Part shown: in pieces, positions 14,857 through 40,900 of the stretch | Numbering within the stretch: the first letter of the stretch is position 1 | Layout of the letters: each line of letters opens with the position of its first letter | Source: Escherichia phage vB_EcoM_G17 | DNA length: 64,000 bases | Sequence record: MK327931.1 | Strand: one strand, 5' to 3' | Notes under the pieces: model-generated | What the model saw: the letters and a program-made list of their open reading frames with translations, nothing else | Database searches by the model: none | What the model was told of the DNA's origin: nothing | Position numbers and translations under genes: made by a program

Positions 14857-15693
14857 ATGGCTATGAATCCACTTGCTAAGTACACTAAAATTGAAGAGAT
14901 CAGTACTAAGTTAGTTACAAACGGCGTTATTCCTTATAAAGAAGGAGTTCTAGGTCCAAAAGGTGTCAAATGTGGAGTTTGTGCACGTAGTGCACGTGAT
15001 GAAATGACACTTAATACCCCCGATATGTTACTAAACGGAGATGCAGTATCCCGTGTTATTGAAAACTGTGTTCCTAATGTAATTGACGCTGATGAGTTGT
15101 ATGTAAATGACGTTGAAATGCTTCTTATTGCTATTAAAGTTGCTTCCAAAGAAGAAACATATGATATTAACGTTGTATGTCCTGAATGTGAAAAAGAAGG
15201 TCGATTTGAGCGTAATCTATCATATCTTCTTGAAACTGCACAAGCATTTGAAGAAATCCCATCAATTGATTTAGATAATGGACTCCGTTTAGAATTTAGA
15301 CCACTGACATGGAAAGAATATTCATCGTTTGCTGAACGCATGTTCAGTGAGCAGCAGAAGACTAAGTTTCTTGAAACTGCTGATATTGATAAAGATGAAA
15401 AAGTAAAAATATTTTCTGAAGTATTTGAAAACATGGCTCAACTTAACTTCGACATGATCGGTGGAGTTATTGCAAAAATTATAACACCAGATGGTGATGA
15501 AGTAGTTGAAAAAGAATTTATTAATGAATGGCTTGGACAACAATCGAAGGGAGTACTTAAACTAATTCGTGAAAAAATGGATGAAGTACTTGAAATTGGA
15601 GTATCACATAGTATGGAAGTAGAATGTGATGGATGTAATCATCAATGGGAAATTGATGGACTAAAATATGATCCTAGTCATTTTTTCGAGTAA
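14857..15693 (+). CDS. Hypothetical protein with three CxxC pairs (zinc-ribbon-like); possibly a baseplate hub assembly component
   Basis: 278-aa ORF, GGAG RBS; CxxC pairs KCGVCA, VCPECE, ECDGCN. Late promoter upstream. Functional assignment uncertain. Confidence 0.45.
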   Translation: MAMNPLAKYTKIEEISTKLVTNGVIPYKEGVLGPKGVKCGVCARSARDEMTLNTPDMLLNGDAVSRVIENCVPNVIDADELYVNDVEMLLIAIKVASKEETYDINVVCPECEKEGRFERNLSYLLETAQAFEEIPSIDLDNGLRLEFRPLTWKEYSSFAERMFSEQQKTKFLETADIDKDEKVKIFSEVFENMAQLNFDMIGGVIAKIITPDGDEVVEKEFINEWLGQQSKGVLKLIREKMDEVLEIGVSHSMEVECDGCNHQWEIDGLKYDPSHFFE

Positions 15694-15902
15694 TGCTTCT
15701 CCAGTCATCTCCTGAAGAAATACAAGAAGTACTGAAGGAGATAGAACTGAATAAGTCAGAAATCAAAAATGCACTAATGGAATGTTCTGTATATATGGAT
15801 AACATTGACTATGGAACACTCCTTAATATGCCATTAATAGATAGAGACTTATTAGTTAAGTCTTTTAATAAAAAAATTAAAAAACAAAACGAGAAGCACT
15901 AA
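15693..15902 (+). CDS. Small hypothetical protein, translationally coupled to upstream gene
   Basis: 69-aa ORF whose ATG overlaps the preceding stop (TAATG). Confidence 0.4.
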   Translation: MLLQSSPEEIQEVLKEIELNKSEIKNALMECSVYMDNIDYGTLLNMPLIDRDLLVKSFNKKIKKQNEKH

Positions 15903-16737
15903 TTTTCATATAGCCAGCACATTGTTGCTGGTTTTTTTGGTTTTAAACTACAGAATTATTTGAATTGAATTATGAAAGGATTAATTTTAATATTATTGGA
16001 TTCATCTAACTCATTTCATTCGTTAGCTGAAGAATATTCGTTACTACGTAACTCATATTCATTTAATTAAATTAATTATAAAGAACTTTAAAAGATTTAA
16101 TACTTGACGGGATTTGTTGAGGACATTTTCATCCCCCCGCAGGGGAATGAAGACAATAAAAAAGAGACAATGAAGTCTCTATTTCTTGACGCTGATGGTT
16201 TCAGCATTTATTGTATTGCGAATTTCTTAAAAATATATTAAGAACGAAAGCGGGTTGCTCTGTTTCTCTCTATCGCAGTCATGTGCAACGGTCGTCAGTC
16301 TTAATCATCCTGACACTCACCTGAAAGTCTATACAATCAAACTTCAGGCTGTTTATTAAAATCACTTAATAAACTCCCTTAGCAAATCTGGTAAGGTGCG
16401 ATCCTTATATGTCTATCGAGGAACTCTCTGTATGCTTATCGGAGTTCTTTATTGAGCCGCATTGCCGTGAGGGGTTCAAACTATGCCCACATCTAACGGG
16501 TTTCTTTTGCTCATCGCACTGTTGAACTGCTCATCTGCCATCTACATTTTCGATAGGATCAGGTTCTAATTTATATGCATTTCTGCATTCAACAGGATTG
16601 TCATTACTACAACAAACATTATAGCACAAACTTTAAAGTTGTCTCACTATTTTTATAAAAATATTCATTAAGTACTTAAAATATTGCAAATAACTAATCT
16701 ATAAATATTTTGATAACAAATAGTTTGGTGAGGAATT
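15903..16737. other. ORF-free ~0.83 kb intergenic region with multiple hairpins; candidate structured ncRNA, origin or regulatory region
   Basis: No ORF of 60 aa or more in any frame across 835 bp in an otherwise tightly packed genome; composition looks less AT-rich than flanks (by eye, not counted); hairpins at 16128-16151, 16163-16180, 16191-16205, 16320-16348; 12-nt palindrome aactttaaagtt near 16630. Confidence 0.4.
16700..16707 (+). promoter_or_regulatory. T4-type late promoter box TATAAATA upstream of endo VII-like gene
   Basis: Exact tataaata 16700-16707, ~30 nt upstream of ATG 16738. Confidence 0.55.
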
Positions 16738-17229
16738 ATGAAAAAAAGATTAAAAGATAGTAAGGATGCTGCAAACTATCGAAACGAATTACTAAAGAAA
16801 CAAAATGGAATAGATCCTATAATTAAAGAACCAATAACTAAACCAGTACTGGATCACTACCACTATGGTAACCAACATTGTAGACAAGTTCTTCAAAATG
16901 AAGTCAATGCTTGGGAAGGAAAGGTACAAAACAGCTTCAATCGATATATGAAGCACTTAACTGATAAACCATTATATGAGGTACTCAGAAATCTTGCTGA
17001 TTACTTAGAGCGTAATAACAGCATTCCTGACGATGAACAAGTTATACATCACACTGCACTAACTGTGGATGTTAATAAGTTTAAAAGGCTTCCAGCAACA
17101 CAGCAAAACGCGATTCTGGAAGGGTTAGGAGTTGTCCCTGGTAGTAACACTACTGCTCGTGTAAAGCAAGCCAGAAAGCTGATTAAGGACGGTAAATTAA
17201 ATATGGTTGATATAAAAAAAGGGAGCTAA
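16738..17229 (+). CDS. Endonuclease VII-like protein (T4 gp49 family), cysteine-less variant
   Basis: 163-aa ORF; VLDHYHY and VLQNEVNAWEGKVQNSF align to the endo VII catalytic region (HLDHDHE ... LLCNLCNAAEGQMKHKF) but the four zinc-ligand Cys positions are replaced; GGTGAGG RBS. Confidence 0.6.
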   Translation: MKKRLKDSKDAANYRNELLKKQNGIDPIIKEPITKPVLDHYHYGNQHCRQVLQNEVNAWEGKVQNSFNRYMKHLTDKPLYEVLRNLADYLERNNSIPDDEQVIHHTALTVDVNKFKRLPATQQNAILEGLGVVPGSNTTARVKQARKLIKDGKLNMVDIKKGS

Positions 17230-21261: not shown

Positions 21262-21349
21262 TGTATTTTACTCTCCATGTTTAAATCCAATAGGTACAAT
21301 CCTTGTACCATCAATGTTATTATAGCACCAAAAAGCATTTTGTCCCACG

Positions 21350-24712: not shown

Positions 24713-27376
24713 ATGGCAGATACAAGTAAAAAGTATGCACAACAGCAGTTGGGTCGTTTTGACCCATCTTATCCGCAGTTAGCAACTGTTATGGATAACA
24801 GAGATCCAACTAAATCAGGAAAACTGAAAGTTTGGATACAAGGTTCTCAAAGTGATAAAAACTCAAAAGAATCATGGATAGAAGCATCTTACATGTCTCC
24901 TTTTGCTGGTAAAACACCAGGTATTCCAAGTGCTGATGCATATGGTCAATATCCAAAAGGATACGGTTTTTGGGCAGTACCACCAGACGTAGGGTGTACA
25001 GTTGTTGTAATTTTTGCACAAGCCCGTACATTCCAAGCATATTGGATTGGTTGTGTATATGACCAGCGTATGAATACTATGGTTCCGGGTATGGCAACTG
25101 AAGTAAGTAATTATGGTGGAACTGATATGCCACTTCCTGTTACTGACTATGATCGTAACACTATCACTACCGATATGCAAGACAAATATGCTAACGTTCC
25201 AATCATCGCAGGTCTTAAAAAGCAAAACCTTTTATATGACGAAGAAGCTGGGTTGGCGAATCGTAGTAGTACTCGACAAACCACAAGTACTGTATATGGA
25301 ATGTCATCACCACGTGGAAATAGTTTCATTATTGATGATGGATATACTGAAGAGGAATTAACTGCACCCACATGGGATCAAGACCCAGATGGATATCAAG
25401 ATACGCAATTTAATAACCCAGTAAACGATACCCGTGTTGGTTCTCGTAAAAATGAAGGTGTTGTAATAAAAACACGTAGTGGTGCACAACTTCTTTTATC
25501 AGAAGCAACTGGTGATGTTCTTTTAATTAACCGTGACGGTACTGCACGTATTAAATTCACTGGTGAAGGTGATATTGACATGCATTGTGACAAGAATATC
25601 AATATTCGTGCAGGACAAGATATTAATATTACGGCTGGACGTTCATACAACATTGAAACCGGACAAGATTTCAATGCACGCGTTGGTGCAAATACTAAAT
25701 TAGATCTAATTGGTGCTCTTGATGCAAAAGTTGGTGGACAAGTGGTGGTTAATTCAGGTGCTGACCTTCGTTTAGTTACGGCTGCATCATTACGTATGCA
25801 AAGTGGTAGCAGTACTGATATTACGGCTGGTTCAAATGCTTCTATTTCTGCCGCAACATCTGCAAACCTAATTGGATCATCATCAGCAATTATTAGTGGT
25901 GGTGGTCAAACATTAACAGTTAATAGTGGTGGTAATAGCGGTACTGCTGAATTTACTGCACCAAACTTTAGAACACCATCTGCTGGTCTTAATGAACACA
26001 TTCATGATATCGCTGCATGGGTTAACGCTGAAAATCATGGTAGTTATGTTGAACCACCAAGACAAGGTGGTGGAAGTGGTTCTAGTGAATCACCAGTACA
26101 ACCACAACCAGCAAATGATGTATCACCAGAATTACCCGTAGCACAAGACACTGAAGCTGTTCAGTTTGTTAACTATACATCAGAAACTGAACAAGTTCAA
26201 TCACAAGATTTGATGACATCTGATCCTGGGATGACTGGATATAGTATTACATATGAAGGTTTACATATGTTAATGCCATGTAGCGGTACTATTCGACAAT
26301 ATGGTTACTGGGGGAAAGGTGTTCCAACACAAAGTGGAGGAAAGGCAGACCGTTCAGGTTGGGAAATACAATGTAAAGGTGATGTAGTTGCACCAGATGG
26401 TGGTGTGGTAGTAATTACTAATGGTGCTCTTTTAATACAACATAAGTCTGGATATAAATCTATTTTTTATAATATTCAATCTGATTTATTAAACAAAGAT
26501 GTTGTTCAAAAAGGTCAAGTTGTTGGAAAAGCAAATGGTGTCATACAGTTTGAAATTCGTGTTACATCAGCAAATGTTCTTGGATTCAGTGGTTCTGTTG
26601 ACCCAGGATTATTTTATGCTTCACAAACAGGAACAGGGTCTGATGCGGCGAATAAAACATTAATTGGTGGTCAAGCAACTAATCAATCTGCTCCAAAAGC
26701 AGTTGTACAACCTTCAGTTGATAGTGATGAATTGGTAGTTACAACAAAAATCAAAACGATAGGTACTGGATATTCTCAACGTGGTTCTCGTCATGTGCCT
26801 CGTAGGAGAAGAACACAGAGAAGTGGAGCTTCAACAACTCCGGTGGAGCAACCTACCTATAATATTGGAAATGTTGATAAAACTGCAATCGATTGGAAAG
26901 TTGTTCCAGGTGATGCACAATTTATTTCTGAATTAAAAGAATATGAAGGTACATTACAATACCAACAAGCAAAAGGATATTATCGTAATGGTAAATTCTG
27001 GCGTTATTTGGATAGTCGTGGGTATCCAACTATTGGTTATGGTCACTTGATTATTAGTGGTGAAAACTTTTCAGATGGAATAACTGAACAGCAAGCCAAC
27101 GATATGTTAGTTCGTGATAGTAGTAAAGCTATATATGATGCTAAATCAATTTATGCTTCATATAACATGAAAACACCTTATTTGGCTCAACAAGTACTAT
27201 GCCAAATGGTATTCCAGATGGGTAAAGGTGGGGTACTTAAATTTAAAACTATGTTGTCTGAATTAGCTAAAGGTAATTATAAACAAGCTGCTGCTCAAAT
27301 ACGTAATTCAGCTTGGTATCGCCAAACTACTCGCCGTGCTGAGTTAATGGCTCGTCGTTTAGAGGCATGTCAATAA
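24713..27376 (+). CDS. Baseplate central spike (gpV / gp5-like OB fold + beta-helix) fused to a degenerate M23/LytM-like domain and a C-terminal T4-type (GH24) lysozyme domain
   Basis: 887-aa ORF. N-terminal WIEASYMSPFAGKTPG...YGFWAVPPDVGCTVVVIFAQ matches the gpV/gp5 OB-fold consensus; residues ~280-400 are short beta-helix repeats; a mid region has M23 spacing (LLIQHKSGYKSIFYNI...KGQVVGKANGVIQFEIRV) but VIQFE replaces HLHFE; the C-terminus (EGTLQYQ...TIGYGHLI...QMVFQMGKGG...WYRQTTRRAELMARRLE) is a T4 lysozyme fold with Glu/Asp/Thr at catalytic positions. Confidence 0.75.
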   Translation: MADTSKKYAQQQLGRFDPSYPQLATVMDNRDPTKSGKLKVWIQGSQSDKNSKESWIEASYMSPFAGKTPGIPSADAYGQYPKGYGFWAVPPDVGCTVVVIFAQARTFQAYWIGCVYDQRMNTMVPGMATEVSNYGGTDMPLPVTDYDRNTITTDMQDKYANVPIIAGLKKQNLLYDEEAGLANRSSTRQTTSTVYGMSSPRGNSFIIDDGYTEEELTAPTWDQDPDGYQDTQFNNPVNDTRVGSRKNEGVVIKTRSGAQLLLSEATGDVLLINRDGTARIKFTGEGDIDMHCDKNINIRAGQDINITAGRSYNIETGQDFNARVGANTKLDLIGALDAKVGGQVVVNSGADLRLVTAASLRMQSGSSTDITAGSNASISAATSANLIGSSSAIISGGGQTLTVNSGGNSGTAEFTAPNFRTPSAGLNEHIHDIAAWVNAENHGSYVEPPRQGGGSGSSESPVQPQPANDVSPELPVAQDTEAVQFVNYTSETEQVQSQDLMTSDPGMTGYSITYEGLHMLMPCSGTIRQYGYWGKGVPTQSGGKADRSGWEIQCKGDVVAPDGGVVVITNGALLIQHKSGYKSIFYNIQSDLLNKDVVQKGQVVGKANGVIQFEIRVTSANVLGFSGSVDPGLFYASQTGTGSDAANKTLIGGQATNQSAPKAVVQPSVDSDELVVTTKIKTIGTGYSQRGSRHVPRRRRTQRSGASTTPVEQPTYNIGNVDKTAIDWKVVPGDAQFISELKEYEGTLQYQQAKGYYRNGKFWRYLDSRGYPTIGYGHLIISGENFSDGITEQQANDMLVRDSSKAIYDAKSIYASYNMKTPYLAQQVLCQMVFQMGKGGVLKFKTMLSELAKGNYKQAAAQIRNSAWYRQTTRRAELMARRLEACQ

Positions 27377-31924: not shown

Positions 31925-34900
31925 ATGAATGAACGAATTATATGGAGTCCAAAAATGACTAATAATTTTAAGTTTCAACCTACACAGATGGCTGAAGCAG
32001 TACAGAAGAAGCTTTTTATTAAAAGATTGCCTGAGTGGATGCAAGGCTTAGAAGATATTCAAAAAGTCAGTGATGATGTTATTCAACAATGGTTTAATCC
32101 GGCTGAAAACGAATTAGTTGACGGCTATATTGGTGATATGGGTTCTCCTGCCGCTGCTGGTAATATCTTCTTACATGAAAGTACTGTAGCACGTCAACTT
32201 TATCAGTTGTCCACTGCTTACGTCTCAAAAAATGATGATTCGACAATTCGTTCAATTCAATTTTATGATGATCTAGTTGGATACATGAATCATTATGGAG
32301 CACTAACCGATAATGAAAGCCGTTTGTTCAACGGTAAGTTTTATGCATGGACTCCAGCTATTAACCCAAATAAAATGAACAATTTTAGCTCATATCTTTG
32401 GGATACTAAAAACTCTTATAATATTACTTCACCTGATTACATTGTAATGGAACGTGGAGCACTTAATGGTAATACATGGTCACTACAAAACTTTTGGTAT
32501 ACTTTAGGTGAAACATTAGAAGATGGCTCAATATTAACTGAAGAATTAATGCAAGATTCACGTTTTATTCGTGCACGTGCACCAATTATTGAATATAATA
32601 AAAATATTGAGCTAATTAACTACGGTACAAAATTCCGTGGAACTGTTGATCTGTTCTCTGATATTATTAAACCTGAAGATATCGTTCAAAAAGATATTAA
32701 TAGTGGTATACGTATTGATGGTATTATTCCGCAAGATGGAATGCGTATTCTATTCACCAGTATTGGTAACAATGGTGAAAACAATAGAATTTATAATGTA
32801 TATGTGAAAAAAATGCAAGATGGTACTCGTGTTTATGGTTTAGCACTAGATCCAGAAGAAGAAACCGAATCACGCCCAAGTGGTGAACCTCAAGATGGTG
32901 ATGTTGTTCTAATCACTAAAGGTAATGAGTATGGTAATAGTTCTATGTACTGGAATGGATCTTTGTGGGTTCGTGCACAATCAAAAACTAGTGTTAACGT
33001 ATTCCCTAAATTCCAACTTTATGATCGTAATGGTATCAAACTTGACAACAGTACTACATATCCATCAAGTAACTTTAAAGGTTCAGAGTTGTTTGGTTTT
33101 AAAATAAATTACAACTATGCAACTGATAGTGTATATGGATATAACATTGAACTTGGTGATTATAATTATTACATTTATGAAAACTTTTTACAATCCCAAC
33201 GTTATACCTATGACCATCTTGGAAAAGAAGTTGAAATTGATGGTTTATACTATTATAACATTATTGATGAAAATAATGAAATGAATCTTCAAACCGATTG
33301 GGTTCGTTCAGAAGAGTACTCTAAACAATTTGTAAAACAAACTCCACAAGTCCAACGTACTGATATGTATCGTGTATTCAGTACTGTTTATGATATGGAA
33401 GTTTTTAAAGAACCAGTTGATGGTATGTATGCATATGTTATTGAAGTTGATAGAACATATCAGTACTATAAAGCTGACCGTGAAACTTATCTAGATTGGC
33501 ATCCAATTACTGGTGATGGTGTTCAGATTGTAAAATATGACCATACATTCGAATTGGCACAAAAAGTTTTAGATAATGATTCTGATATTATTGAAGTTGT
33601 GGTTGATGGTGTTGATGTGTCCAAATATACCAAAAATGTTTCAAAAGGTCAAGTACAAAGCATCACTCTAGATAGTACTGTAGAATTGGATGAAGATTCT
33701 GTTATTCAAATTAGAACTTATAGCAGTACTGTAACTCCTAATAAAGAATTAGGTGCATATGAAGTTCCAATCAACCTACAAAATAACCCATATAATTCTA
33801 ATATTATATACATTAACCAAGGTGACTACACTTTACATTTTCAGGATATTATTCAAAAGAACATTACACGTGGTTCTTCTGATGATTTCAATGACTATGA
33901 AGAACGTTTGGCTAAAGGATTGGTTAATAATGGCGTAGGTACTAAAATTATCCAAAATGAAGCATCTATGCTTCCATTGATGGCACATACTGCAAATGAA
34001 GATATTGATTTGTTTGAAGCAACTATGTTTATGCAATCTGAATATTTTAGATTCATTAATAAATTTAATACACAAATGCTTCGTATGTATGATGAAAATC
34101 CATCAGACTTTTTACAAAATAGTGCTGCAAACATTGTTGATGCAATTTTAACTACTATTAATATGGGACGTGATAGTTCATTCCCATTCTATTATGATAA
34201 TGTTGGAAGTACTTCTGGATTCATTCGTGCATTTATACCACCAACACCACAGTTCTTAGGTATTCTTCAAGCATATGTACCAGAAAAAGCGACATTCCTC
34301 ACTGCTGGTAGTAAACCAAGCTGTTATAACATCAGTCATACTGGTATTATTTCCAAAGCATACCGTGTTATCAATGGTGTTGATAAAATGGATGATGTTG
34401 TATATGAATTAGAAAATAGAATTTTTAATAGTATTGATAATAAATTCAAAGATGTTGATTACGTACCAGTATTGAATAGTGATGACCTTTTCCCTACACC
34501 ATATTTCACTAAAACTGAATATAGTGCTGAAGAGAAACAAACATTATTACTACGTGGATACATTAACTTCACCGCAACTAATGGTATCAGTAATAGTACA
34601 CATGATTATGATCCTAACAATTGGAGAACTTGGAACTATACTGGCACTTATTATGTAGTTAATGGTCAAAGTACTGAAATTCCTGCACGTGGTTCATGGC
34701 GTGCCATTTACACTGACCAATATGGTACATATCGCCCAGCTACCCATCCGTGGGAAATGTTTGGCTTTACACAACGTCCAACTTGGTGGAACCAAGAATA
34801 CGAACCAACGGCTGTTCAAGTTGGTGAACGTGATAGTGATGTTGTATATGTATATGAAGCACTTGTTATGAATGAGCAAGGTGATTTAGTTCCTAGTGGT

Positions 34901-37900
34901 CTTTGGGATATTGACGGAACTATTGGAGATAGCAGTACTGGAACTATTTTATTTGGTGATCGTCGTGGTCAATATGACAAATATAAAAGATTTGGTGTAC
35001 AGCCATTCAAAATTACAAAAACTGGAAATAAAACATCTTCTGGTATTGATATTTGTGTGGTTGAATATATTGCACCTGAAATTTTAGGTTTAGTGTCTGG
35101 ATCTTTAAATCATAGAGCAGAACCTTGGACATATGGTGATATGGGTGACATGGAATTTACATACATGAACACTACATTGTTTGCATATGACCAAATGATG
35201 CTTTTGTATAAAGCTAAACCAGCACAATTTGCTAACTATTTCTGGGATACCCGCAACGATAACTTAAAAGAAGTATTCACTGATGGTTCACAATTCCTTT
35301 ATGGTGATACACGTAAGCGTATTAATTTTGATAAAAATACAGTAGTTCATGGTGAAAATAGCACAAGAACAATTGGTTATCAAATGTTTGTAAGTGACCA
35401 TTTGATGTATCAAAATAAAAATATTACCACCAAGTATGGGGATGTAGTTCGTTCTTCTTATATAAATGTTGGTCATAAAATTGGAGGATTTACTAAAGCA
35501 GATCAGCTAACATTCAATGCTAAATCTTTCGGTCTTATTTCACAAGAAAACCAAACCATTGGTCTTGTTCGTTCTAATAATATCCGTGATGAGCAAATGA
35601 GTGCGATCAAAATTACTTGGAATGGTAGTGCATATCAGATTGATGGATATGATCTAGTTGGTGCTAAATTTAAATATAAACTTCCAGTAAAAAATGGTAG
35701 AAAAGTAACTCTTAAATTGGAAAACCGTAATGTTGTTCATTATAATGAATGGAAGTCTGAAGCTTCAATTGAATATGGTAAAGTTTTCAATAGTTACCAA
35801 GAAGTTTATACTTTTATTTGTGGATATGGTGAATATCTTAAAGAACATGGTTGGATTTTTGAAGATGTAAATGATAGTGGTGCTCAACAAGATTGGAACA
35901 CTATTGCTAAAGATTTCGTGATCTGGAGTCAGAATTCTCTAGTAACTGGTGAATTTATTTCTTGTACCCCAAGTGCTGCAAACGCTAAATTTGGGGCAGA
36001 CTTTGGTTCAGTACAATCTATTACGCAAAATAATGGTGGTGTATGGTCATTACTTGATGATAATAACCAAGGTATTCGCCAATATGAAATTGAAACTTCT
36101 CGTATTGGAAATATCTTCACTGTTAGAACTTTAGAATCTAATAAACGCATTGCATTGATTCGTTTAAGTTTGTGTTCATATGAACATGCTGTTATTTTTG
36201 ATGATAAAACTATTTTTGGTGATTACATTTATCAGCCAACATATGGTTCTATTCAAGAACTAATTAAAATGTATGGATATATTACTGGTTCATGGACTGG
36301 TCGCCTACAAGCTCCTGGATTTATTATCTTGGAAGCTGGAACACTACCATCATTTGAAAAATTAGTGTCGGATTTCCAACATTATTATGATAGTGAAACT
36401 CCAGTAAGTGATGTACAATTACAAGAGTTGTCAAACCATTTGATTGGTTATCAATCTCGTGATTATCTACAGCGTATGATTAGTAGTGATGTTAGTCGTG
36501 TTGATTTCTATAAAGGATTCATTCACGATAAAGGTACTAACCAAGTTTTAGAACGTGTACTTCGTGTTTCTAAATCATATGACACTGATGAATATAAAGC
36601 ATTACAAGAATGGGCATTTAAAATTGGTACATATGGTAATATTGATGGTAAGAAAAACCTTCAATTTAAACTAATCAATGACCAATTTAAACAACAACCT
36701 CAAATGGTTTCTTTTGATGTAAATGCAACTTCAAATGGTAATGGTAATCATATTGTATACTTCGGTGAGCAAGGTAAAGATCCTCGTTGGATTACACGTC
36801 CAAATGGTAAGTTCTCATTCCCAATGCGTAGTGGAAGAAGTGAAAACATCCAACTTCCAGATATTGGTCCAGTAACATTGGATGAAGTATCGTACACAAC
36901 AAAAGATTTCAGTACTGCATATAATGACCGCATAACTTATACTAATGGTAAAGGTGAAAATCCTGAATCTGTGTGGATGTTTAAAGACGGTAATGGTTTG
37001 TGGAACATTTTTGAATTGGTTGATACTAATGTACAAATGGTTTCTATAACACCTATTGAAAATACCGATGTGTATGCTGAACAATTTTGTAAAGTAACTT
37101 TAACTGATAATGTACCACTTGAAGATGGTGATTATTATTATTTTGTTGATGAAACTAACTTTATGCCAGATACTTTAACAGTAGAAAGTCAATATTATAC
37201 TGCTGGTTCTGATCCTAAAGTTATGGTAGTTCCATTTGACACTTCTATTGATATTGAATTTACTGATCCAGATACACGTCCACGTTTGTATCGTTATGTA
37301 TCACGTTTTGCCAGTACTGATGATCGTCAAGCTTACATTGACAAGAAATATAGTTTTAAAGCACCACAAAGTACTTTATTTGATCGTCCAACGACATATG
37401 ATGAACGTACTAACATTACTGAGCTATATCTAAACGTTTATGACCCAATTAATGGTGTTATTCCAGGTGCGGCTATGCAAAACGTAACATATACTTCACC
37501 AGTTGATCCTGCACAGTATAATAGTAATGGAGAGTTAATCCAGGCTTGGGGTGCTGATAAAGTTGGTCAAGTATGGTGGAACACTAGCACTGCATTTTAT
37601 TTGGATTATACTCGTGCAATTTATGACGCAGACGGTAATGTTGATATTGATGCAACCAATGAATACAAACGTTACAACTGGGGCCGTTTGTTACCACATA
37701 GTACCATTGATGTGTTAGAGTGGGTTTGTTCACCAGTTGAGCCATATAACTGGGACAAATACTGTAAAGATGTTGCTAAGAAAAACAAAAATAATACTAT
37801 GTATCTACCAAGTGGAACTGCACTTGAAGATAATTATAGTACATTTTTGGAATATGATAGTTCAACTGATAGTTATGTAACAAAATACTATTTCTGGGTA

Positions 37901-40900
37901 CGTGATACAATTTATGTACCACCACTACATACCAGAACGAAATCATGTACTGACATTGCTCGTATTATTAAAGATCCAACACAGCTAAACATTCCTTGGT
38001 TCGCTCCAATAAATGAAAACTCGTTTATTCTTAGTAATATGCAATTTAAAGTGAATGATGATACCAGTATTTTAACTGTTTCTTATTACATGGATAGTAC
38101 TGAAGTTGTTAAACATGACCAGTATCAACTATGTAAAGAAGGTGACAGCTATAACTTTAACCCACTAATTTGGGATTCAATGTGGAACTCACTAATTGGT
38201 CAAGAAACAACTGAATCAGGTTCTGTGATTAATTTATTATATCCAGATGTTGATAACGGTTTAGGATCAAACAAAACTTGGTTCCAAAATGTTATAGAAG
38301 CTCGTAGAAACTTTGTAGAAAGTGCTAATAATTATTATAGGTCACAAAACATAACCACTAATAGTGTTGTTATGGAAGATGTGTTTAATGTTAAAACCAC
38401 TGAAGTTAACCCTAATGAAGTTTCTTTCCGTGTGTTGTCTTACAATAATGAATTAGTTATTGCAGTTGAAAGTGATAAATTTAAAGAAAATGACGCTGTT
38501 ATTTTAAGTACTAGTGGATATCTACCAAATCCATTAACTTCTAGTGCTGTTTATTTTATTCACTTCGACGAAAATGGATATATTCAGTTAATGAATAGTC
38601 CAGCAAACGCGGGTAGTGTTGTTACTATAACGTTAGAAAACAAAGGTGAGGGACAACATAAAATGATTAAACAATCTGATTATGTTGAATCACTAGGAAC
38701 CTCATTAGACATGACTCAGTACTGGTCATATGCTGATTGGTATGATGTTGGATATGATAGTAACACGACTTATACTCAAGAGTCAAGCTTAGAAGATGCT
38801 AATACTAAAAACTACCAAGTTGGCGATATTATCAGAGTTACCGATAGTGAAAACATTTGGACATTGTATATTAAATCACAATCACGCGATTCAATTTATT
38901 GGAAAGCGATTGGTCGTGAAAACAGTACAGTTGAACTCAATGATATGCTTTACGCAGATTATAGTGTTCATAATGATAATGGTTCACTAAGCAATCGTGA
39001 AATCAACGTTCGTAAAGCACTAGCTTTACTCAAAAATTCTTTCGATTTACATCAAAGCGAAATTGTTTTTGATATGGTCAAATATGTACATGTTGAACAA
39101 AGTGTTGTGGATTGGGTATTTAAAACATCATATATCTATATTGTTGGTTTGGAACAATCATTAGTTCAAAACTATTCAAACGATAATTTGATTAATCAAA
39201 TTGTTGAATATTTTGAAGAAGTTAAACCTTATAGAACTAAAATTCGTTCACAAATAGAGCAAAAGACATCTGATGATGATTTAATAAAAGGTCTATGTAA
39301 TGATTTAGATCCTAATGGATATATTTTCGTTGATGGTTCTTGGATCAAAACTGAAAAAGATATTTGGGATTATGAGTACGCTCAATTTAATGAAATTACC
39401 CAAAAATGGGAACAGGTAGGTTCACTACCAAGTGATTTCGTTACACCAAATAGAAGATTCCAAGAAATTGATATTATTATGCATTATGATAATATTCAGT
39501 GTAAACCAAATGAAGATTTGGCAAGCATAAATGAATTAGTAAGTGTTAATAACAAATATCAATCCAATGAAAAGGATGCTGTTAGTAACTATGAATTACA
39601 ACGTTATATATATTCTTTCCCAGAATATAGTGAAGAAACTTTCGATCTTCTTATTGCTTATCAAATGCAAATCTACTATCCAGAATTGGATGTAACACTA
39701 GGAACAGCATATGGCGTTAACCAGTGGTATAAAGACCATGCGGAAGATTTAGAAGCAACTGATGAATTCACTGCTACATTGGAACGTGTTTATAAAGAAT
39801 CAACGCATAACGATATGTTTACTGACCTTAGACAATATGTTCAGTATAACACATTGGCAAACCGTTTGAAACTTTATAAAGATATAAGTGATGAGAAAAT
39901 TCACGATGAAGTTGGATGTGGATTTAGTGGACTTACTTATAATGACAATCCTAGTACTAGACTTCCATTAGGCTTTTCTTCTAGTAATGATTATAACTAT
40001 GGATATTTTGAAATAAGCAGTGAATTGTATCAAAAATACATTTCATTAATTAAAGATAAAAATCCTGACGCATCAGACTATGAAGTAAAAGTTAAACTTG
40101 AAGTTGAGTATGGTGTATATGTTTATCGTTATGATGAAGTAGGTGGTGATACCCGTTTCTATACTGATGCTATTCACGTATTAGCAGGTATGAGAGGGTT
40201 ATTCGACAAAGACGCTACTGATAAGTACGAAAAAGCTGAAGAGATTCTTAGTAAGACCCCAATTGATATCTATGCAATTACAATGATTCCACGAAAATAT
40301 GTTTACTTAAATGTTAACGGTGTATATCAAAGTATACCTGATGAACAAAGTATTGATGATTTCATGGAAGATTATTTTATCACAAATGGTGAAATGGTTG
40401 AACTAGCTGAAATAAATCTTGATGATTTACCACTAGATCAAAATAATCCAATGTATTCTGATTATCAATATATACTTGATAGTATTACTGAAGCTAAGTA
40501 CTTCAATGATATGAATGCATTTGATAACCTAGCATTGGAATCTCAAACTTCTTCAATAAAATGGGAAGTTAAAGATGATGAAGTTGATCCTTATATTGTG
40601 GATATATCTGACATAAACCCTTCTGGGCGTGATGTAGGTCAAATTAGATTTACAGTTGATGGATATGGGTTTGACAATGTATCTCTTGTACAATTACGTG
40701 ATAACAGCAGATATCAAACTGAAGGTATGGCAATTATCAATCCATATAAACATACAGAAGCAATTGTAAGTATTCCTTCATATGCTAAGATTGAAAATGA
40801 TATTAATAAAACAACATCGAAGTTTGATGAAAAATATTTCTATCGTGTGAGATCTATTAATAGCTTAACTGAAGCAGAAATAGTTGACAATGACCTATCT

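Follow-up and report, generated by a model that had tools for sequence, protein, structure and literature searches.

What occupies the longest stretch without a recognizable gene in a jumbo coliphage genome segment? The window analysed here, 64,000 nucleotides from Escherichia phage vB_EcoM_G17 (MK327931.1), includes an 835-bp gap at positions 15903–16737 with no open reading frame (ORF) of 60 or more amino acids in any of the six frames; this is the longest such stretch in the window, followed by ones of 130, 101 and 89 bp. In sequence the window is identical to part of the 350-kb genome of Escherichia phage Sharanji (OR545507.1), an Asteriusvirus and RaK2-like jumbo myophage whose core of replication and morphogenesis functions is of T4 type; window coordinates equal Sharanji record coordinates minus 175,630. 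The initial annotation, made from the sequence alone, described the gap correctly as ORF-free and offered a large structured RNA or a replication origin as candidate explanations. We conclude with high confidence that the gap holds the gene for a large structured non-coding RNA, encoded on the minus strand and composed of a 5' domain and a pseudoknotted 3' core behind a conserved promoter, that it is one of four paralogues in the genome, and that it belongs to a family found in the RaK2-like phages sampled and in islands of Enterobacteriaceae, without a match in Rfam or in the literature searched.

The evidence for a folded RNA comes from an alignment of 49 representative sequences (no more than 93% identical) drawn from phage genomes, IMG/VR, metagenomes and bacterial genomes, on which a structure of 78 pairs in 16 helices was written from a search for covarying diagonals. 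Standard pairs occupy 95.9% of the cells of the proposed pairs, compared with 37–46% when the 3' partners are slid by 1–3 columns, and 58 of the 78 pairs have changed on both sides (712 cells). Across 500 shuffles, not one reached the value of the alignment in any of five covariation measures. RNAalifold, applied to 22 copies, gave 66 predicted pairs, of which 44 show compensatory changes. Covariation across these diverse homologues, a check that the initial annotation had suggested, strongly supports its candidate structured RNA.

The same pairs identify the sense strand. Folding energies do not separate the strands (z-scores of -3.5 and -3.3, both better than shuffles), but G·U combinations outnumber A·C combinations by 203 to 38 across the proposed pairs, and by 124 to 33 when the hairpin with the G-run is left out; one proposed pair is G·U in 29 sequences and would read as A·C on the opposite strand. 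The excess of G·U over A·C therefore makes the window minus strand the sense strand. A scan for terminator-like sites found four where 0.4 were expected.

Could the gap instead be the remains of a protein gene, the possibility that the initial annotation had named as refuting its reading, or a group of short ORFs that annotation has missed? GenBank records treat the locus variously as empty, as encoding 2–4 'hypothetical proteins' or as a 'repeat_region'. The hypothetical proteins, placed here in several phage records, and short ORFs of 30–45 amino acids on both strands are what such an explanation has in its favor. Against it, each reading frame contains 7–20 stops, no frame is conserved across homologues, and only 59 of 234 distinct indel events are multiples of three, which is no excess. 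The spacing between invariant anchors drifts by 1–2 nt between copies, substitutions are compensatory in helices rather than concentrated at codon third positions, and a peptide cluster common to all copies, considered as a candidate product, reflects nothing beyond nucleotide conservation. Homologous phages keep the gap free of genes, and we regard a coding origin as so improbable that it can nearly be set aside.

No described RNA family accounts for the gap. Rfam 15 gives no matches in the whole window at gathering thresholds, and at E-values up to 10 the region 15600–17000 yields weak matches to small RNAs that align on terminator hairpins and that we judge spurious; the candidate identities offered initially (GOLLD or ROOL, a group I or II intron, a transfer-messenger RNA [tmRNA] or a tRNA) thus find no support in these searches. 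ARAGORN reports no tRNA or tmRNA genes in the window, in line with the earlier remark that nothing tRNA-like is visible. Resemblances noted by eye to a CsrA sponge, a Shine-Dalgarno mimic, a hammerhead, RNase P CR-V and, on the plus strand, the 5' part of tmRNA were dropped, the motifs being either not conserved or on the wrong strand.

The conserved element occupies only 16105–16646 of the gap and reads leftwards. Its promoter (16618–16646, minus strand) combines a -35-like TGAGAC (16646–16641), a 14-nt spacer and an extended -10 box, TGcTATAAT (16626–16618), and was picked up by a promoter scan with 10 of 12 matches plus the TG; transcription is predicted to start near 16611. The RNA is predicted to run from there to at least 16105, a length of about 507 nt, or of about 455 nt if it ends at an internal terminator-like hairpin. 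In about half of the copies, including the Sharanji copy near dam, a strong hairpin with a U-run lies directly after the -10 box, with the predicted start inside its 5' arm; such an arrangement would block read-through from upstream genes and let promoter-initiated transcripts escape.

The 5' domain (16392–16611) includes helices H1 to H7, between 16595 and 16392. H1 (16595–16588/16526–16519; 85% paired, with double changes in seven of eight pairs) encloses two hairpins, H2 (16587–84/16579–76), which varies in length and aligns poorly, and H3 (16562–52/16542–35), with 93.8% of cells paired and many double changes. H4 (16513–09/16457–53) is paired in all 49 sequences (100%) and encloses H5 (16499–96/16468–65; 99.5% of cells paired), and these are followed by H6 (16447–42/16426–21; 96.3% of cells paired) and H7 (16407–03/16396–92); H4, H5 and H6, like H3, have many double changes. 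The invariant single strands of this domain are GGCAGAUGAG, AUAAAG and GAUAGACAUAUAAGG. A purine block, AAGGGAG (16374–16380), links the two domains and is invariant or nearly so in the 49 copies, and a variable peripheral hairpin (16373–16350) follows it directly. We found no covarying candidate for a helix closing the 5' and 3' ends, and pairing of AAGGGAG (with the pyrimidine tract of H15) or of CCCGC with the G-run region could not be distinguished from chance or composition.

The 3' domain is a pseudoknotted core (16191–16349) made of H8 to H13, a long-range helix (LR) and a pseudoknot (PK). H8 (16349–43/16325–19; 95% paired, with compensatory changes across homologues) presents a loop that pairs with a segment 120 nt downstream to form the seven base pairs of LR (16337–16331/16216–16210), which is 99.4% paired and has compensatory changes in all seven pairs, with two to four pair types each; a pairing of the same loop with the 5' sequence ACAAUC was dropped in favor of this 3' partner. 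H9 (16314–10/16298–94; 96.4% paired) is followed by an invariant GACCG and then by PK (16289–85/16258–54), whose 3' strand lies inside the loop of H11. PK, H10 (16277–73/16221–17) and H11 (16270–66/16250–46) are each paired in 49 of 49 sequences (100%), and H12 (16243–40/16228–25) is 96.6% paired. The four hairpins listed in the initial annotation all exist and correspond to H8 (16320–16348), H13 (16191–16205), H14 (16163–16180) and H15 (16128–16151), but two of them are not general: the register of H13 (16205–01/16195–91) is not kept across copies, and a hairpin at the H14 site occurs in only about 22 of the 49.

H14 (16180–75/16168–63), found by the terminator scan, forms with its U-run (16158–16180) a terminator-like variable insert, with compensatory changes where the hairpin is present; the U-rich tract is present in all copies. 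Beyond it lies a 3' element (16105–16151) that consists of H15 (16151–42/16137–28), the A-rich motif AUGAAAAU and a near-invariant tail, CAAAUCCCGUCA (16116–16105). The 3' arm of H15 carries an invariant run of six Gs (G6; 16138–16133), and GGGGGGA, CAAA and CGUCA are invariant or nearly so and persist in the divergent subfamily described below. The 5' arm varies only between C and U facing an invariant G (79 G·U pairs), the variation being one-sided in six of the seven pairs counted; this is a signature at the level of RNA, and transcription therefore passes H14 at least sometimes. A candidate long-range pairing of three base pairs, CGU (16109–07) with GCG (16517–15), is weak and shows no double changes.

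Two further observations concern the periphery and the family at large. A hairpin module of about 45 nt (a stem, the loop UUUUUACAAUAUA, then GUCCAAAAUUUGAG or GAUCCGUCCAAAAUUUGAG) is inserted, depending on the copy, at either of two peripheral sites and sometimes at both, the Sharanji copy at 270.4 kb being one example; it is marked as a repeat_region in UE-S1 and behaves like a transposable RNA module. There is also a divergent, GC-richer subfamily in other phage-like metagenome contigs, at sites syntenic with two of the Sharanji copies, those at the baseplate hub and sigma-factor genes, so the family is wider than the RaK2-like phages found by BLAST. This subfamily keeps AAGGGAG, the whole core, GGGGGGAUGGAAAU and CAAACCACG, and has an additional conserved 3' extension (GUGUUCGUGCUGCUAAAGCACUCCAC...); its 5' domain is much more diverged, and the 3' half is therefore the most conserved part of the RNA.

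The element lies in a compositionally distinct setting. As first described, the gap is less AT-rich than its surroundings, with a G+C content of 0.40–0.42 in 16100–16600 and of 0.23–0.30 in the flanks; a palindrome had also been noted, and the palindromes present lie in the AT-rich flanks and resemble low-complexity sequence. On the downstream side of the RNA there is an AT-rich spacer (15936–16104, minus strand; about 23% G+C) that is kept only within Asteriusvirus. It may go untranscribed, extend the RNA at its 3' end or serve in unwinding, and its membership in the element is uncertain; among 46 copies, the 80 nt past the tail average 29% G+C. To the left of the gap are a baseplate-hub-like gene and a small ORF (14857–15902) and to the right an endonuclease VII gene (16738–17229), all on the plus strand. 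A strong intrinsic terminator of the upstream plus-strand genes (AGCCAGCA...TGCTGGTT, then a T-run) lies at 15912–15933, and a T4-like late promoter motif, TATAAATA, at 16699–16706 on the plus strand, 32 nt before the start codon of endonuclease VII. The RNA gene thus sits between two plus-strand units and is read head-on against them.

How widely is the RNA distributed, and is it a single gene? BLAST searches of 50,697 phage records match the core, approximately 16096–16565, at 70–77% identity in every RaK2-like lineage, including Asteriusvirus, GAP32, CBB, Serratia phage BF, Yersinia phage fHe-Yen9-04, several Erwinia phages and Xanthomonas phage XbC2, with a partial match only in RaK2 and K64-1, and at two to five places per related genome. 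A profile search of Sharanji with nhmmer finds four copies, all on the minus strand of the record: the gap copy (c1; 191.7 kb), between the baseplate-hub-like and endonuclease VII genes; c2 (80.9 kb), directly downstream of a phage sigma-factor gene; c3 (270.4 kb); and c4 (326.5 kb), near dam. There is no further copy within the window. The copies all point the same way as the bulk of the genes. BLAST searches of other genera often give the best match in a context other than that of the gap copy, and each of these contexts reappears from genus to genus. Identity is 81–87% between orthologues of different genera and only 55–73% between paralogues of one genome; since orthologues are closer than paralogues, the duplications are old and each copy has been maintained separately, without homogenization.

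The family extends beyond phages. A search pattern for the pseudoknot core with 21 specified bases matched eight bacterial genome contigs, all of which carry full-length homologues (about 300 bits): the Serratia fonticola GTA-SR07 chromosome, Serratia sp. 2723, Enterobacter chinensis, Silvania hatchlandensis, Enterobacteriaceae RIT714, two enterobacterial metagenome-assembled genomes (MAGs) and one 2.8-kb 'Clostridium' MAG contig. Rfam has no match at the element in these eight loci. A further 77 metagenome loci carry the RNA. The bacterial copies lie in islands with the order tyrosine or large serine integrase, RNA, and a convergent CI-like repressor (helix-turn-helix plus S24 peptidase), beyond which are a divergent Ner-like gene, a 286-amino-acid membrane protein without a Pfam match, an LprI-like protein and a small resolvase. 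In a second type, in Serratia fonticola, a serine recombinase and two ParB/RepB-like genes accompany the RNA, beside a duplicated rof gene. The islands examined encode no recognizable replication protein, and PADLOC and PHROGs return only a generic repressor and integrase among their proteins. The compact integrase/RNA/CI-like island of Enterobacteriaceae is apparently undescribed, and these islands may be satellites or defence elements linked to jumbo phages. Island copies have the same type of promoter as the phage copies (TGAAAC-N14-TGTnnTATACT).

Other replicons have few or no copies. A blastn search of the 72,556 plasmids of PLSDB with an island copy as query (word size 11) gave no match, and among 5,426 complete E. 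coli genomes two have a partial copy, in an island near ffs. In E. coli LR-29-1 the partial copy (about 70% identity over half the length) occupies an unannotated 1.4-kb gap, and the island, beside ffs, also carries an IS3 element, an integrase fragment and DUF4326/DUF488 genes.

A dispersed multi-copy family with a pseudoknotted core that adjoins integrase genes in islands could be taken for a ribozyme or the relic of a mobile RNA, either a free-standing group I- or II-like intron or a recombinase guide RNA. We consider this very improbable. Rfam offers no intron or ribozyme match even at E-values up to 10, the helix topology is, by our own comparison, unlike that of group I introns, group II introns or RNase P, and the element is not inserted in a gene. 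The copies are old and at fixed syntenic sites rather than recently transposed; those in phages have no adjacent recombinase, and the islands use tyrosine or serine integrases.

When is the RNA made? Nearly every copy is preceded by a promoter with the consensus TGaAAC-N14-TGnTATAAT, conserved across the set of 49 and in the island copies as well. Promoters of the form TGRRAY-N13-15-TGnTATAMT number 18 in Sharanji, and every one of them is on the minus strand; four are those of the RNA copies, and the others precede helicase, RecA, nuclease and SbcD/gp46-type genes and a tRNA-Ser/Arg pair. In the window the class occurs at 16646 and near 21347 (record 196977). This class agrees with the 'divergent RpoD-like' promoter of CBB and GAP32 (-35 TGAAACG, -10 TATA), which has been tied to DNA-synthesis genes (PMC5259590). 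Because the promoter class is shared with DNA-metabolism genes, the RNA is probably made with these early or middle genes rather than late. The initial annotation had suggested late transcription from the position between two late-promoter-driven genes; as the RNA is antisense to the flanking genes and has its own sigma-70-type extended -10 promoter, not TATAAATA, this is unlikely. The early region of Sharanji, outside the window (record 26340–27060 and 34817–40487), also has several unannotated stretches of 0.6–1.9 kb. One of them contains small unannotated ORFs preceded by early promoters that are repeated (AGTACTTGCAA...TATAAT); a G-rich 5' hairpin comes after every such promoter, and one of these hairpins has a run of eight Gs.

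What, then, might the RNA do? It could act as a cis leader that stays with RNA polymerase or heads an mRNA, either by processive antitermination in the manner of HK022 put or of EAR RNAs or as a riboswitch-like device with H14 as the terminator, and so govern how the long arrays of co-directional genes that follow each copy are expressed. The co-orientation of all copies with the bulk of the genes agrees with this, as does the next gene being on the same strand in 51 of 84 phage loci, mostly 9–150 nt downstream; the conserved unit itself contains terminator-like hairpins with U-runs, which in many copies come after the start site and in about 45% are at H14. However, the next gene is convergent at the gap copy, in 23 of the 84 phage loci and in 12 of 13 island loci, leaving nothing to regulate in cis. 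Half of the copies lack H14, H15 and the tail intervene between H14 and the next gene, and 500 nt is far above the size of the antitermination RNAs we know of. We therefore think a leader function unlikely.

The leading specific mechanism, which we put forward as possible and no more than that, is a cis-acting origin pre-primer, similar to ColE1 RNA II or to the R-loops of T4, that satellite-like islands exploit as well. Each copy would act in cis: host RNA polymerase would start at the RNA promoter in the early or middle period, and the folded RNA would place the invariant G-rich 3' segment, GGGGGGAUGAAAAU, so that it stays hybridized with the C-rich template. The hybrid would become a persistent R-loop beside AT-rich DNA, RNase H would trim the RNA to a primer, and a T4-type replisome would load there. 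For the islands, having this promoter and RNA would mean being amplified, and perhaps transduced, by an infecting jumbo phage; their lack of replication genes would be explained by an origin run by host or helper enzymes. Identity and origin mechanism taken together form the overall best explanation we can offer, and we hold it tentatively, as something short of probable.

Several findings are consistent with an origin. The four copies are in the same orientation, dispersed over the 350-kb genome and kept separately at syntenic sites, and their promoter class is that of helicase, RecA, nuclease and tRNA genes too. GC skew follows the transcription strand throughout Sharanji (5-kb bins), and the main minimum of the cumulative skew, at about 195–200 kb (window about 19–24 kb), is a few kb from the gap copy; this copy adjoins the main switch of strand and GC skew, as three T4 origins do. 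Near the 3' end the invariant G6 leads into an A-rich motif, and four of the six G6 runs on the minus strand of the genome are in these elements. Sharanji encodes RNase H. T4, the paradigm for this kind of replisome, begins early replication at five or more origins, three of which lie at a strand or skew switch, and oriF and oriG consist of a middle promoter and an AT-rich unwinding element, the transcript giving rise to an R-loop primer processed by RNase H (PMC3016281). The AT-rich DNA of the jumbo-phage element (29% G+C) follows the 3' tail, not the promoter.

Other points weigh against an origin. Neither a particular sequence nor a folded RNA is required at the R-loop origins of T4 (PMC3016281), and 500 nt that contain a pseudoknot and unpaired nucleotides kept invariant look more like a ribozyme or a ribonucleoprotein (RNP). 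Cumulative GC skew has no inflection at the other three Sharanji copies, and about 45% of copies have a terminator-like hairpin upstream of the G6 segment. The lack of similarity to any of the plasmids searched argues that the RNA is not a free-standing host-dependent replicon. The G6/A-rich segment resembles the G-run/AAAAA arrangement of the ColE1 origin in pMB1, a likeness that is short and was seen by eye. The gap contains no iterons and no meaningful direct repeats, just two trivial AT-rich tandem arrays (scores 32 and 37); an origin, as suggested initially, may be of an RNA-primed form. The priming or origin role is a proposed one, and the 5' and 3' ends of the RNA are predicted.

The alternative of about equal likelihood, each being a possibility that we would not call probable, is a trans-acting ornate RNA or RNP: a defined three-dimensional particle, alone, multimeric or protein-bound, that diffuses in the middle period and, for example, sequesters or scaffolds a factor. 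Paralogues would then provide dosage or specialized variants, and island copies would be decoys or hijackers. The invariant unpaired nucleotides, long-range helix and pseudoknot are typical of RNAs with tertiary folds. The RNA has a self-contained gene, complete with promoter and, in the gap copy, an intrinsic terminator-like hairpin, and the hairpin module at two alternative sites is like the peripheral elements of large RNAs. GOLLD and ROOL, large ornate RNAs carried by phages and without an assigned function, form homo-oligomeric complexes, according to one report (PMC12286853). Against this, four to five paralogues that stay syntenic from genus to genus without homogenization would not be expected of redundant diffusible products. 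The terminator-like hairpin comes before the best-conserved part of the RNA, its 3' segment, and many copies lack a terminator and continue into a gene 9–150 nt further on. No partner protein co-occurs in the islands, and such a role names no concrete activity.

To our knowledge, new large and highly structured RNAs of bacteria and phages are rare, and each so far has brought new biochemistry or a lasting puzzle (RNase P, group II introns, OLE, GOLLD, ROOL); we also know of no understanding of how replication starts in 350-kb T4-like genomes. An origin pre-primer would, if true, be a categorically new replication device. The family might thus represent either a 500-nt pseudoknotted RNA that confers specificity on the multiple RNA-primed origins of T4-superfamily jumbo phages, with minimal integrase/CI islands as origin-mimicking satellites, or a new class of ornate RNA particle shared by jumbo phages and their parasites, a pair of prospects that we raise with reserve. 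The covariation is unusually strong for the first description of an RNA, the four or five separately maintained copies point to a function central to jumbo-phage biology, and the presence of the same RNA and a phage-type promoter in tiny integrative islands suggests a possible undescribed satellite or defence relationship with jumbo phages. The RNA is also carried by model-friendly coliphages, with 121Q, PBECO4 and Sharanji on E. coli K-12. That it is a multi-copy family, present in bacterial islands too, is apparent from the sequence comparisons and goes beyond what the initial annotation could see.

The RNA shares features with several known systems. As in ColE1/pMB1 RNA II, a sigma-70 promoter lies about 500 nt before a G6 run and an A-rich motif (AUGAAAAU here), the RNA is folded and about 500 nt long, and there is no initiator protein and there are no iterons; this is a resemblance only. 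Unlike RNA II, to which it has no detectable homology, the jumbo-phage RNA is absent from the 72,556 plasmids, has far more conserved unpaired nucleotides, pseudoknots and multiple copies per replicon, and no counterpart of the antisense RNA I was identified, no systematic search for an antisense promoter having been made. The T4 origins oriF and oriG share with it a T4-superfamily genome, several dispersed sites and an early or middle class of promoter followed by non-coding and AT-rich DNA, to which can be added the RNase H of Sharanji and the location of one copy at a strand-switch region; T4 origins are about 100 bp long with no common motif, whereas the jumbo-phage RNA is a 500-nt fold conserved across genera. 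Processive antitermination RNAs such as HK022 put and EAR are 70–120 nt long. They too are cis-encoded structured RNAs just past phage promoters, with more than one copy per genome and terminators downstream, but the gap copy and the island copies have no co-directional genes downstream (12 of 13 islands being convergent).

Published jumbo-phage genomes hold no counterpart that we could find: the genome papers of RaK2, CBB, fEgEco12 and PA5oct, a comparative review of jumbo phages and keyword searches, a coverage that is not exhaustive, report nothing alike, and the long non-coding RNAs ncRNA001 and ncRNA002 defined by RNA-seq in PA5oct, a distant relative, show no similarity and have none of the invariant motifs. 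The closest parallels are ROOL and GOLLD, which are likewise several hundred nucleotides long, with many conserved helices, invariant unpaired nucleotides and no ORF, are borne by phages or mobile elements and have no assigned function. The jumbo-phage RNA differs from them in having no sequence or structure match (cmscan against Rfam is negative), in its hosts, which are Enterobacterales jumbo myophages rather than phages of Firmicutes or lakes, in its two to five divergent paralogues per genome, which are not beside tRNA genes, and in its conserved phage promoter class and its presence in integrase/CI islands. On these comparisons of sequence and predicted structure, we place it as a new RNA class within a general kind already known, the large ornate RNAs of phages and mobile elements.

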